From assembly GCA_964016885.1 (NCBI GenBank), contig OZ024742.1, forward strand, positions 76,508,001 to 76,572,000: DNA of 64,000 nucleotides. The letters are read 5' to 3'. The number at the start of each line of letters is the position of its first letter. Positions within the stretch are counted from its first letter, which is position 1. The notes beneath the pieces are model-generated. The model was not told where the DNA came from, ran no database searches, and saw only the letters and a list, made by a program, of their open reading frames with translations. Shown here piece after piece: positions 336 to 60,837 of this stretch. Source of the stretch: Eledone cirrhosa. Lineage: Eukaryota. The position numbers were made by a program, and so were the translations under genes.

Positions 336-658
336 ATTAGAAATTAGAAATTATAAGCTTTCACCGTATTTTAGACTAAAGAAATTTCTAGCCTGATAGT
401 GGGGTTTATAACCCTCGGAGAAATGGAAAAAGATGAGTGTTGGTTATCCAGACCTGGATAACCAAAGATGAGGGTTCGACTGCCATGTACGGCAACACTC
501 ATCTTTTTCCATTTCTCCGAGGGTTATAAACCCCACTATCAGGCTAGAAATTTCTTTAGTCTAAAATACGGTGAAAGCTTATAATTTCTAATTTCTAATT
601 TCAAACTCGCGCACCGTTTCAAAAACATACTTACATGTTTACGTTTATAATTTGCTTG
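336..658. mobile_element. Small foldback element in (TA)n: arms 336-442 and 493-599 plus a ~60-nt tail
   Basis: 107-bp inverted repeat, nested hairpin TTGGTTATCCAG-AC-CTGGATAACCAA at the arm/spacer junction, (TA)n on both sides. Confidence 0.75.
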
Positions 659-2477
659 TATATATATATATATATATATATATATATATATATATATATA
701 TATATATATATATATGTATATATATATATATATATATATATATATATATATATATATATATATATATATATATATACATATATACATATGTCTAAACATT
801 GCTAATGATGTTCCTAATCACAGGGAAAGAAGACCATCATCATCGCCATCACCACAATATCTACCAGACCTATCATCATCATCATCATTATCATGAAAAT
901 AATTAACAATATTGTGATGATATATAACATTAATACGAAACACAATAATAATACTTAACTTATTGTTTAGTAGAGATATTGTTACTAATCATAGTCGTAG
1001 GGGCAGGATCAGCCTTGACTTAGACACGAACAATGTGTCTTATGTTAGAATTAAATAGAGTGCCAACCTAGGTAAATTAAGTAGCAATTACTTTACATCA
1101 CACAAAAGCAACACATTCACACACACACACGCGCGCGCGCGCGCGCATATATAAACTTACACAAACAACATTCACATAGACACACAGACAAACCCCCATC
1201 TATATTTATATGTGTGTGTTTGTGTGTGTCTGCGTGTGTGTGTGTGGGGGGGTGTATGTGTGTCTGTATGTGTGTGTGTGTCTGTGTGTGCGTGCGTGTG
1301 TGTGTGTGTGTGTGAATATCTGCGAATATTGCGAATATCTTTTACAAATTACAGTAGTAAGAACATGTATAATATAAAATGTATGTTTCATATTAAAGTC
1401 ACCTATTTTGGGAACAGTTCACAATAAAGCTAAGGGAACAGAACTTTCATACTTAATAACTATCTTATTTTGTCTTTTGATAAGTTTCCTACATTCAATG
1501 TCATCAATAATCGTGATATTGATCTATTCTTTTGTTCAACTAATATTTGTTCTCGCTGTGGTGTCGGGGGAGATGTGAAATATCTGATTCAGGTAACTTC
1601 GATTTACCTATTGTCTGATTGTGATATCACGAACTACATACAAGGCAATGCTGCACTTATGTGCATAACAAGCACATGTTATTACCAATTCTATTCATTA
1701 ATCATATGTCACATAATCTGCATTGCAACTAAATAGCACACAGATACATAAGTGTGCATATATGTGTGTGTTTGTATGTATGTATATGTGTGTGTGTAAA
1801 CAACCACACATATATTAAAAAAATATTTTCAAGGACAACATAATTTTTTTCTTACCCTTTGCTCATCTTTTTCTTATTCCCTTTTTTCTTATTCATGTAC
1901 ACACACACGCGCACATACACACACAGCCCTCCTCCCCATATATATATATATATATATATATATATATATATATATATATATATTACGTTGGCATTGTACA
2001 CCATGTACATGATTTGGCCCCAGGTCACACAAATCATTTCACATGATGCATCTTTCATCAGATACATCACCAAACTGACCTGTAAATGCTAGCATCTCGT
2101 ACGCTGGGTCACATAGAACTTCGTAAAGAAGAACCGGTAATTACGCTGATTGCGTGAAAATACCTAGTTTTGAGCAGAATTAGTTACTGTTCAAGTCTTT
2201 TGTGTACAAACGCACCTGGGCTCAGAGAAGAAATTACAGGGCCCCAGAGATCGTTCATGTGTAAAATAACTTCCACGATAGTTCTTACTGGGATCCTTTG
2301 AAAACTTTGAATTGCATCTCTTGTGAACGAAAAGAGAATGATATACTAATATATAAGAATGGAAGAACGGCAATGTTTCAAACTTGGGCATTGAGGAGAA
2401 TTTTAAAGCATACACTCATAGTTTCTACCTACTTGAATATATACGACCTTCAGAATTCCGAACAAAATCTCTATATA

Positions 2478-2668
2478 ATTGTTTCTACTTTTGGCACAAG
2501 GCCAGAAATTATCCCAGTGTATTACTGGTACTTTATTTTATCGACCCCGTATGGATGAAAGGCAAAGTTAACCTCGGCGGGATTTGAACTCAGACCATAA
2601 AGGGCCGTAACTCGTTGCTGCAAAGCATGGCGTCCGACCCTCTACCGATACTGCCAATACACCGCCCT
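2478..2668 (-). mobile_element. tRNA-derived SINE with Meta-domain-like core
   Basis: Minus strand has A box TGGCAGTATCGG, B box GAGTTCAAATCC and core GCCTTTCATCC..GGGGTCGATAAAAT. 14-bp TSD AATCTCTATATAAT at 2466-2479 and 2669-2682. Confidence 0.9.
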
Positions 2669-3157
2669 AATCTCTATATAATGCGAAGTATTCAACTGAA
2701 TACATTGAAAATGGAAAATAAAATTGAAAAAAGAAGTAACGTTGAATGAACTCCTAACTACTAAACTGGGCCAAACCATTATTTAATGTTACATTCTAAA
2801 GAGATCAGGTGCAATAATCTCAAATATACTAGTTTCCCACCGTGAAAGTACAACAACATTGATAGTAAATAAGTTAATGCAGTGCTCCATTATTGCCAAA
2901 ATTCATCGACTGAATCCACTAAAAGAATTAAAGAATATGTATAGAGACAGGGAGAGGGAGAGACTGAATCATATATGTATATATACATATATACATACAT
3001 GCATATATATATATGCATGCATATATATATATGCATGTATATATATATATATATATATATATATATATATATATATATATATATATATATATATATGTAT
3101 ATATATATATATATATATATATATATATATATATATATATATACATGCATATATATA

Positions 3158-3762
3158 TAATAAATGTTCGGTGAATCCATACGTACATATATATATGTGT
3201 GCATGTATATATATATATATATATATACATACTACTGTACGTCTGTATACATATATGTATGTACGTGTACATACTTATATTTAAGTAACAGCCGTACTAA
3301 GAGTGGGAAATGAAATTTCGTTTCATTTTTTCCGTTTATCGTTTTCGGTGCACCCGGCCGATTAAACCACTCGATATGCAAATTGGGCTACTCAGCCGTT
3401 AATATGCATAAGGTAAGTATATACGTTCAACAATCTGTCAGGAAGGTATACGTTGCTGACGATAGCTAATAAGCTTGAAAATAGTACAGCGTTCCTTTGT
3501 CAGTGTTGAACAAACGAGCAACGATGGTTGCTAGACACTACGGCTTAATACGGGACGTTTGTTTACAAACACACGGAGCATTATAATAAATGTTCGGTGA
3601 ATCCATACTTACATATATATATATATGTGTGCATGTATGTATATATATATATATACTACTGTACGTCTGTATACATATATGTATGTACGTGTACATACTT
3701 ATATTAAAATAACAGCCGTACAAAGTGTAGGAAACGAAATTTCGTTTCATTTTTTCCGTTTA
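3158..3762 (+). mobile_element. Non-coding HHR-bearing element, ~1.4 tandem units of ~425 bp (retrozyme-like or solo PLE pLTR)
   Basis: Direct repeat 3158-3339 / 3583-3762, internal HHR, (TA)n flanks, diverged second copy at ~47410-47736. Confidence 0.65.
3450..3492 (+). ncRNA. Minimal type I hammerhead ribozyme
   Basis: ACGTTG-CTGACGA-T-AGCT-AATA-AGCT-T-GAAA-ATAG-TA-CAGCGT, with extended stem I pairing over ~3428-3508. Confidence 0.75.
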
Positions 3763-3775
3763 TATATATATATAT

Positions 3776-58709: not shown

Positions 58710-59470
58710 TCAAAGGTATATATTGAGTTAGGAACTCAAAATAGTCTCTTACAACAAAATAGCTCTAAGAAAGAGATATTTCCGAGCCGTATATTATAAT
58801 AGAATATAAAAGAAAAATGAACACAGATATATACATATATGTGTTAAAATCGTAAGAGACCGGATTCGCTAAGGTGAAAAGAATACTAACTATAGACAAT
58901 TGGGTTTGCTTGCCTCAATTTAAGAAAAAAGCAAGAAAATAAATAGAAACTGGAATTGTGGTAACTACAAATCACCCAGACAACTTGGTGTTGTTTCGCA
59001 ATGTTAATTGTGAATGGAATTACCAAGTCAAGCCCTTCAGTGGGTGATGAATTAGTATCCTAGAAACTTTTAATATATTAAGAAACTGAATAGTGTGCTA
59101 TATATAATAGCGCACATGGTATCTTAGTGTGTCTCAGAAACTTACACCACCTGGCTGCTACTTTTAGTGGTTTAATATACCATGTGCGCTATTATATATA
59201 GCACGCTATTCAGTTTCTTAATATATTAAAAGTTTCTAGGATACTAATACATCACCCACTGATGGGCTTGACTTGGTCATTCTATTCACAATTAACATTG
59301 CGAAACAACACCAAGTTGTCTGGGTGATTTGTAGTTACCACAATTCCAGTTTCTATTTATTTTCTTGATTTTTTCTTAAATTGAGACAACCAAACCCAAT
59401 TGCCTATAGTTAGTTTTCTTTTCACCCTAGCGGATCCGGTCTCTTACGATTTTAACACATATATGTTATT
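58710..59470. mobile_element. Non-coding foldback element: arms ~58832-59121 and ~59177-59466, longer tail on the left
   Basis: ~290-bp inverted repeat with several mismatches and an HHR-like motif in each arm. Confidence 0.85.
59251..59328 (+). ncRNA. HHR-fold motif with CTGA(T/A)GG core (mirror ~58970-59048, minus)
   Basis: ATCACCCA-CTGATGG-GC...GC-GAAA-CAAC-ACCAA-GTTG-TC-TGGGTGAT. Stems I and III are perfect and stem II is weak. Confidence 0.65.
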
Positions 59471-59624
59471 ATAATATTATATATATGTATATATACACAC
59501 ACCCTGCTATATCAAGCGTTAATCTAATATATATCTTCCATATACTGTACCGATTGTGTTGTTATTTCTGTTTACCTTTTACACATATATATGTACGTAT
59601 ACATAAGTATATATATATTACCTG

Positions 59625-60352
59625 CTCTCTTTCTTCACCCAGTTTTTTTTATCCCAATAACTTATTTTAGATATTGTATCACGTTAGCCAAGGGTATCTG
59701 GTCTTTAATGCGAAGAAATACCTATGATGGCTAGTAGACCACTAATGATGGATAGTCCTGGCTTCTATTTCTAATTCTTCATTTTATTTATATATCACAT
59801 GCAACAACACAGCAGGCCATTTTTCATTCCTATATGCTTTCCCCTTCGACCTGTCTTTTTCTCCCCTTACTGCTATCCTCTTTCTCCTTCCCGTTTCTCT
59901 CTCCTCCTTCTTACTTTCATTCACACCCTCTGCTAGTCACCCTCTCTCGGCTAGCCTCTTCCTCACATTTTCACTCACTCTCTCTCTGCTACTCACCCTC
60001 TCTCTCACTTCCTCCATTGTCCAACACCGTACGAAATTCTTTCCTCGCTCACTTTCGCACAGTTTAGCTGTGTCTTGGTGTTCACGTCAATAATCGCAAG
60101 TTCCTATGTTCAAATGAATCATAGACTTGATTTTCTAATTTTTTCCTCTCTTTACGTTGCCTCACCATTCGTGTTTGTTTACTTCTCTCTCTTTCTCCAC
60201 CCAATTCCTTTTATCCCAATAACTTATTCTAGTTATAGTATCGCGCTAGCCTGAGGTATCTGGTCTTTAATGCGAAGAAATACCTATGATGGTTAGTAGA
60301 CGACTGATGATGGATAGTCCTGGCTTCTATTTCTAATTCTTCATTTTATTTA
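59625..60352 (+). repeat. Partial tandem: ~165-bp direct repeats with 562-bp period
   Basis: 59625-59790 vs 60187-60352 (ATCCCAATAACTTATT...GGCTTCTATTTCTAATTCTTCATTTTATT), ending in (TA)n. Confidence 0.8.
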
Positions 60353-60723
60353 TATATATATATACACACACACATACACACACATACACACACACACACA
60401 CACACATATATATATATATGTGTATATATATATATATATATATATATATATATATATATATATATATATATATATATATATATATATATATATATATATA
60501 TATATATATATATATATATATATACATACATATATATATATATATACATACAACGCACTAGATTACTCAATACTTAGGGTAGTAGAGTGGGTAATAGGAA
60601 AATATCGTCGGGTGTTAACATTTTCCTATATATATATATATATATATAGGAAAATGTGACCAGCGACGCCGAATGGACGCCCAACATACTGGTCGGTCAA
60701 GGTGATCAATGTGATATATATAT

Positions 60724-60837
60724 ATAGGAAAGTGTTAACACCCGACGACATTTTCCTATTACCCACTCTACTACCCTAAGTATTGAGTAATCTAGTGCGT
60801 TATGGTTCATCTGGTTCCTTACCACACTTCCTTTGTT
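60724..60837 (+). mobile_element. Minimal ~113-bp foldback/tail element related to the GC-rich PLE family
   Basis: TAGGAAAGTGT..ACATTTTCCTA followed by the family tail TTACCCACTCTACTACC...CTTCCTTTGTT. Confidence 0.75.

Follow-up and report, generated by a model that had tools for sequence, protein, structure and literature searches.

Short and tailed ends of head-to-head Penelope-like insertions in a (TA)n-rich window of the Eledone cirrhosa genome

Why should two copies of a retroelement that lie head to head end differently, one at a short end and the other behind a tail, and how are such insertions made? This question is raised by the window analysed in the present study, a stretch of 64,000 nucleotides (C3:76508001-76572000) in a 3.0-Gb genome, in which (TA)n tracts are abundant. 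An earlier note on this stretch had listed 11 places with inverted copies. Reading of the DNA together with self-comparison, by which the inverted pairs of the window were recovered, showed at every one of them two copies lying head to head, of which one stops at a short end and the other at a tailed end. The foldbacks were made by Penelope-like retroelements (PLEs) that inserted into (TA)n. The element type and the head-to-head structure are known already, and the near-strict pairing of one short end with one tailed end is the part that is added here. In the following, S is the short end of an arm, T is the tailed end and a pair is two head-to-head arms; pairs of 250 nt or more are called long, and shorter foldbacks are called minis.

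Pairing of a short end with a tailed end

Five groups of elements (A to E) were mapped with natural-copy references across 300 loci of the genome (L numbers below; 1,566,530 bases with overlaps counted) and the window; copies of the D and E ends were located via exact patterns. The script returned 560 raw pairs. After removal of duplicates and of pairs with neither end S or T, the latter being mostly simple-repeat noise, there remained 264 different pairs in which one end or both could be classed, each with an adjacent inverted, 5'-truncated copy. These consist of 207 S/T pairs, one S/S pair, three T/T pairs, 41 pairs with one unclassed end (mostly broken arms or diverged subfamilies) and 12 pairs that run over the edge of a locus. 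For the 211 pairs with both ends classed, about 105 S/T, 52 S/S and 54 T/T would be expected if the ends were independent (p about 2e-56). The S/T pairs were found in every mapped group (A 36, B 101, C 28, D 32, E 10), and the rule spans the putative Hydra-like, Neptune-like and non-autonomous groups described below. Furthermore, four long B pairs cut by locus ends turned out to be S/T from the neighbouring sequence, with the longer arm short-ended.

The ends themselves are sharp. In group B, 97 arms stop at +1 and 98 at +84, of 218 arms, and solo copies also terminate at S or T. The tail measures about 56 nt in C, 60-65 nt in E, 80 nt in B, 86-90 nt in D, 88-96 nt in A and about 123 nt in the insertion at 58710. 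The short-end motifs pointed out in the earlier note do recur, CAATAT at 8148, 8173 and 61772, TTCCTA at 40444, 48626, 60628 and 60724, and TTTAATA at 40638 and 47137. The TA-like microhomology claimed for this end is present, but it is not special to it and is found likewise at the tailed end: the element's own bases are TA-like at both ends. Target-site duplications are unreadable, because the targets are (TA)n, with at least 6 TA bases outside 172 of the 207 short ends and 156 of the 207 tailed ends. One B mini (L241:296-527) has about 25 TA-like bases on each side, and its homologous empty copy (L131) is without a TA tract; in this one case the TA could have been gained at insertion or by an earlier expansion. 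In the whole genome, exact markers were counted 11,248 times for A, 25,513 times for D, 1,240 times for E and 4 times for F. The exact end patterns of B gave 7,247 short ends vs 22,828 tailed ends, a ratio that was left unused because the tail pattern is likely common to more subfamilies.

Their motifs suggest that the elements comprise three related Hydra-like groups (A, B and D), one Neptune-like group (C) and one 290-bp non-autonomous element (E). In B, the unit as read from a natural tandem has 3531 bp and an open frame of 784 aa, in which reverse transcriptase (RT) motifs are followed by a GIY-YIG-like motif. The unit of D has 3259 bp and frames of 645-712 aa, and C has a 722-aa open frame; in the frames of B, D (712 aa) and C, a YxDD motif and then a YIG motif occur in that order. 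The tandem units of B, D and E (290 bp) form the pseudo-long terminal repeats (pLTRs). The families had been taken as unrelated in the earlier note, which was found to be incorrect for A, B and D: their proteins share 36-53% identity, and only their end DNA is unalike. In addition, A, B and D have a CxCx5C linker (CNCx5C), and B and D have the RWR (RLRWR) and DKT (HSDKTG) motifs. The C protein gave no alignment to those of A, B and D and has a Cx4CxxC linker. The Pfam search assigned no family to the window fragments of A, B and C (5 of 5 fragments), and the PLE assignment rests on motifs. Element E is a 290-bp tandem unit without an open reading frame (ORF) and with short and tailed ends of the PLE type (window 336-659; L204:3612-4323; L164-L165). 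It has a tRNA-like stretch with motifs which we take to be box A-like and box B-like, and ARAGORN called no tRNA in the unit. E may possibly be a short interspersed nuclear element of the RNA polymerase III type that travels with a PLE; no autonomous partner of it was found among the sampled loci.

Spacers, templates and hammerheads

The spacer had been expected on the short arm, and on this expectation the earlier note was only partly right. It lies there at 3776, 6058, 25464 and 40444, but it is clearly on the tailed arm at 46440 and, by reach, at 8173, and the insertions at 336, 40638, 48626 and 58710 are ties or mixed. Across the sample, the spacer by physical length was on the short arm in 80 pairs and on the tailed arm in 56 pairs, with 71 ties (within 10 nt); by upstream reach the numbers were 74, 52 and 81. 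The ratio of short arm, tailed arm and tie was 30:38:3 in the long pairs and 50:18:68 in the minis. Orientation as a rule was rejected, and a tendency is left in the minis only. Since the spacer can be on either arm, neither arm is always the copy of the other, and since either arm can be longer, a "main copy plus inverted copy" is no fixed relation. The view that simple snap-back copying is inadequate nevertheless stands. Copying of the tailed arm cannot have given the short arm in the 80 pairs with a short-arm spacer, and for 17 of the 207 S/T pairs the tailed arm is wholly downstream of the short end (19 were listed, and L147 and L272 were dropped for internal deletions). Further joints of this kind are present in contigs of run X1, which may be the assembled sample.

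The variants in the arms bear on the number of templates. The overlapping sequence of 32 young B pairs amounts to 28,951 bases. Of the variants there that are known from multiple insertions, 40 were common to the two arms and 1 was confined to a single arm, and private variants were shared by both arms in 21 cases and unshared in 20. For common variants in the B minis (n=44), the ratio of shared to unshared was 87:3. The arms of D minis differed by 0.069 within insertions vs 0.089 between insertions (n=11), which argues against pervasive arm conversion and adds no haplotype support. Arm lengths are also coupled in young B pairs, where 29 were short/short, 27 long/long and 3 mixed of 59, and 4 of 27 long B pairs were equal within 15 nt vs 0.22 expected by permutation. 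Group C had no length-class coupling (p=1.0, n=28). Haplotype sharing and length coupling count against two RNAs drawn freely from a pool. They favour the synthesis of both cDNAs from one RNA molecule, and a hairpin or two RNAs from one locus may also give rise to them.

The arms meet at microhomology of 2-4 nt. Among 33 long B junctions, 22 are without an insert, and 15 of these (15/33 in all) overlap by at least 2 nt, vs 15% by chance; several minis have short inserts at the centre that were copied from nearby sequence. Central deletion driven by age was tried as an explanation of the asymmetry and rejected, as no trend with arm divergence was seen (rho 0.03, n=27). The starts of the B arms cluster at -52 to -63 (97/202), with only 7 between -70 and -250, and those of the D arms at -60 to -72. 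The hot spots are on TTAGT, which presumably resembles an initiator motif. At L273:4834-5995 and L279:347-1073, the start of the tandem units lies between -56 and -62 and the junction leads to +899 or +194, with the same junction twice in L279; these tandems look as if they came from template jumps (RNA 5' end to 3' end) or from rolling on a 257-nt circle.

The putative hammerhead cores differ among the groups. The core of A is canonical with a palindromic stem III, and B has a U3-A8 core with a palindrome in stem III, a core variant described for PLE hammerheads (PMC4209133). The core of C is canonical and is 160-195 nt upstream of S, D has a non-canonical CAGAAGA core with a non-palindromic stem III, and the motif scan found no core in E or F. 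Rfam gave no hammerhead at the gathering score or at E up to 1, and only sub-threshold hairpin and microsatellite matches were returned. The hammerhead cut site was rejected as the 5' boundary of the arms: the B starts pile up at -52 to -63 and not at the predicted cut near -19, and most B arms extend past this cut. Since the S/T rule is found in D, E and C as well, the end rule holds regardless of the hammerhead, which is likely not needed for foldback insertion.

Readings of the mechanism

The probable origin of these insertions, in our view, is a programmed twin priming in which a single RNA is used at two start sites, one at either end of the tail. From the features seen directly, which are the two fixed ends, their S/T pairing, the TA-like bases, the shared haplotype, the length coupling and the junctions, we infer a dimer, a strand displacement and a joining of cDNAs. 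A protein dimer would cut both target strands in (TA)n. One cDNA would start at the tail end and the second at the short end of the same RNA, and each target 3' end may pair with a UAU-like stretch at its site. The tail-started enzyme would trail the other one along the RNA and displace its cDNA, giving overlapping arms, and its early stall may give a tailed arm that is short or consists of the tail only. The two cDNA 3' ends would be joined via microhomology, and each would template the second strand of the other. The minis would arise from RNAs that begin about 59 nt (B) or 69 nt (D) upstream of the short end and are primed within the first pLTR. That both target strands are primed at two fixed sites had already been suggested in the earlier note; this part fits the data and matches an anole PLE in vitro, but the spacer argument given for it fails.

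A wider proposal, to which we give somewhat less than even weight, is that twin priming is the normal route of PLEs. An asymmetric dimer would grip one RNA at both ends of the tail, one cDNA would be made per target strand and the cDNAs would template each other. The tail would be the footprint of the dimer, and the inversion would solve second-strand synthesis, in at least two PLE clades and in non-autonomous passengers.

Several points weigh against programmed twin priming on one RNA. The loci were chosen by end-region searches, mostly on contigs C1-C2, together with incidental copies, and they sample the copies of the genome without counting them all. Four pairs are exceptions to the rule (L187-L188, L290, L295 and L200; three T/T and one S/S), and the 41 pairs with an unclassed end also have to be counted here. 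At L187 the symmetry extends into the flanking DNA, which points to homogenisation at a later time. The mechanism is read from finished insertions only. Classical twin priming yields non-overlapping arms (PMC2837659), but most arms here overlap; as only 17 of 207 pairs are non-overlapping, the process would be twin-priming-like and not the classical form. This overlap needs strand displacement, which is hypothetical for the PLE enzyme. In vitro, the start sites were without strand preference or homology to the cut DNA (PMC11167929), whereas the ends here are TA-like. The 21 private variants shared by both arms are in no other sampled insertion, and snap-back copying or conversion could be their source. 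Finally, the shared haplotype, coupled lengths and near-perfect palindromes are predicted equally by a hairpin intermediate.

In such a hairpin route, a tail-primed cDNA folds back and copies itself, the short end is made by endonuclease trimming or by pairing of the second target strand there, and the centre is unevenly deleted. The microhomology is explained in this way too, and the literature offers both components, since head-to-head PLE palindromes have been ascribed to self-priming (PMC3846280) and the one-sided tail to endonuclease resolution (PMC8557442). We still consider this route unlikely. Its unmodified products should carry the spacer on the tailed arm, and the minis show the opposite (S 50, T 18); the 17 tail-only arms and the 80 short-arm spacers each require a second deletion step, and most pairs need one. 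The asymmetry is unrelated to age, and the 2.3-kb palindrome of the window persists with 6 mismatches and many mismatch-free pairs are very uneven. In addition, the short end matches the measured RT start site of another PLE (PMC11167929). Strand displacement would be unnecessary if each protein subunit primed on an RNA of its own, or on its own unit of a tandem transcript, with the same locus as the source and without need of a ribozyme. Multi-unit tandems do exist (L031-L032), dual priming has been postulated for L1 (PMC2837659), and a single active source per cell would keep the haplotypes alike. The coupled length classes (3 mixed of 59) and the excess of equal lengths make this rather improbable, because with two independent RNAs or modules the combination of a 59-nt arm and a long arm would be expected frequently, and why one end should be short and the other tailed is left unexplained by it.

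The earlier note had suggested, as a possibility, two RNA copies joined by the palindromic stem III of dimerising hammerheads, which would present both priming sites. The palindromes in stem III of A and B agree with this, and minimal PLE hammerheads are thought to be dimeric (PMC4209133), but the palindrome is not general: the same S/T rule is followed by D with its non-palindromic stem, by E in which no core was found and by C with its putative ribozyme far upstream. Naiads, which lack canonical hammerheads, still show inverted copies and one-sided tails (PMC8557442), and insertion in vitro was unchanged by hammerhead mutants, which were catalytic and not dimerisation mutants (PMC11167929). 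The arms, which share haplotype and length class, behave as copies of one template, and we hold a hammerhead-joined pair of RNAs to be very improbable. An assembly artefact from fold-back reads, for which the identical arms of some young pairs could speak, is hardly credible in view of the fixed unequal ends, the unique flanks on both sides and the old pairs with independently decayed arms. Similar inverted joints of a short arm to a tail are also found in contigs of run X1, which may be the assembled sample.

Insertions of the window and known systems

The insertions of the window are collected in Table 1.

Table 1. Insertions and hammerhead motifs in the window
Feature	Coordinates	Strand	Description
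E foldback (290-bp non-autonomous)	336..659		left end short, right end tailed; both arms extend about equally far, with an internal deletion in the short arm
A foldback	3776..6043		left arm tailed (3776-4030); right arm long and short-ended, with the spacer and a decayed ORF
A minimal type I hammerhead motif	5933..5982	+	CUGAUGA core; stem III palindrome AUAUAUAU
C foldback	6058..8148		tailed arm left; short-ended arm right with ORF 6915-7595; spacer on short arm
C minimal hammerhead motif	7945..7987	+	about 160-195 nt upstream of short end; mirror copy 6271-6313 on minus strand
Older C foldback	8173..10088		left end short, right end tailed; upstream reach greater in the tailed arm, which has a large deletion
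A foldback	25464..29510		short end left, ORF remnants on minus strand; tailed end right
A hammerhead motif in tailed arm	29312..29367	+	
A partial tandem (pLTR-ORF-pLTR)	36500..40376	+	tail at end; no inverted arm
B mini foldback	40444..40604		short arm to -59, tailed arm from -20; spacer on short arm
D mini foldback	40638..40872		short end left, tailed end right; near tie
D foldback	46440..47137		tailed arm left carries 277-nt spacer
D hammerhead-like fold	47068..47117	+	CAGAAGA core (non-canonical); stem III non-palindromic
Old foldback, B-related subfamily	48339..48527		tailed end left, decayed short end right
B long foldback	48626..53318		arms of 2.3 kb each, 99.7% alike; left end short; tail at 53239-53318; 3' halves of ORF on both strands
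B hammerhead motif	53131..53218	+	U3-A8 core (UUGAGAA); UGAGCUCA palindrome in stem III; mirror copy 48645-48732
F foldback	58710..59466		about 123-nt tail left, short end right; spacer half per arm (comparison with L302)
Cluster of two B-related mini foldbacks (60552, 60724)	60552..60837		inverted 60-nt copy of right flank (60655-60714) between them
C copy	61772..64000	-	short end at 61772; runs off the window

Different families are stacked in one (TA)n tract at 8148/8173, 40376/40444/40638 and 48527/48626 of the window and at L171, L232 and L284; each insertion therefore leaves targets for the next one. Inverted flank DNA adjoins the short end at 60655-60714 of the window (vs 60855-60914) and at L161:1330-1415. 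Such inverted flank copies resemble those described for remodelled L1 break ends (10.1101/2024.12.14.628481), and they give hints of a true double-strand break during insertion. A dispersed repeat of about 195 nt has seven copies in the window (2476, 5482, 10416, 26134, 34260, 37137 and 45450), and the left arm of the foldback at 25464 is broken by this repeat at about 26134-26336.

Other elements were also observed in the window. An uninterrupted 1141-aa frame at 21081-24506 has an RVT_1 match and a weak zf-RVT match and belongs to a young non-long-terminal-repeat element. A decayed long interspersed nuclear element (LINE) with endonuclease and RT pieces is at 15906-20521, a further decayed PLE with GIY-YIG and weak RT matches is at 41551-43874, and an RT fragment is at 60796-61695. 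An imperfect palindrome of 300 nt at 31731-32028, with TA and TG/CA tracts at its centre, has no relation to the A-F references.

By motif only, A, B and D are placed with the Hydra clade of PLEs, with which they have in common the RWR/DKT motifs (RWK-like in the clade), the CxCx5C linker and the (TA)n targets, and C is placed with the Neptune/Nematis-type PLEs by the Cx4CxxC linker (PMC8557442). The units of B and D are 3.3-3.5 kb, vs under 3 kb for the elements described in that paper. The insertion unit of endonuclease-containing (EN+) PLEs has been described as a pLTR with an adjacent inverted, 5'-truncated copy and a tail often at one end only (PMC8557442, PMC3846280). The elements of the present study have in common with it a single ORF of RT and C-terminal GIY-YIG, tandems, the inverted copy, the one-sided tail, (TA)n targets and, in most groups, putative minimal hammerheads. 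They differ in the tails, which are 56 to about 123 nt here vs 30-40 nt as published, and in the S/T pairing, which is near-obligate here (207/211), whereas the tail was described as present "often" at one end or "optionally" on one inverted pLTR (PMC3846280). The counts turn this descriptive statement into a near-strict rule. No statement of strict S/T pairing or of PLE twin priming was found in the literature searched, and older papers (e.g. Arkhipova 2006) may hold one. The surprise is limited, because the structure itself is known. The origin of the tandem and inverted structures of PLEs was named an open question (PMC8557442), and the steps after first-strand synthesis were stated to be unvalidated (PMC11167929).

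The nearest likeness in function is Poseidon of Anolis carolinensis (PMC11167929). In vitro, two RT start sites bound its tail and both target strands are cut and extended; its targets are AT-rich, its protein is predicted to dimerise and catalytic hammerhead mutants leave insertion unaffected, all of which agrees with programmed twin priming as proposed here. The difference is that the inverted copies and the pairing of one end of each kind are not explained in that paper, and that neither a strand bias of the start sites nor target homology was seen. Three sharp predictions follow for this existing in vitro system. Group B suits such a test, because it is young, with an open 784-aa frame and thousands of copies. 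In twin priming of LINE-1, as in its postulated dual priming (PMC2837659), the second target strand primes inside the RNA, which gives an inversion and microhomology at the inner junction, and such an inversion with microhomology is common to the insertions of the present study. In LINE-1, however, the inner site is variable, the event is occasional and the arms do not overlap, whereas here the inner site is fixed, 56-123 nt away, and the arms mostly overlap. If programmed twin priming is true, PLEs differ from LINEs in that twin priming would be the rule.

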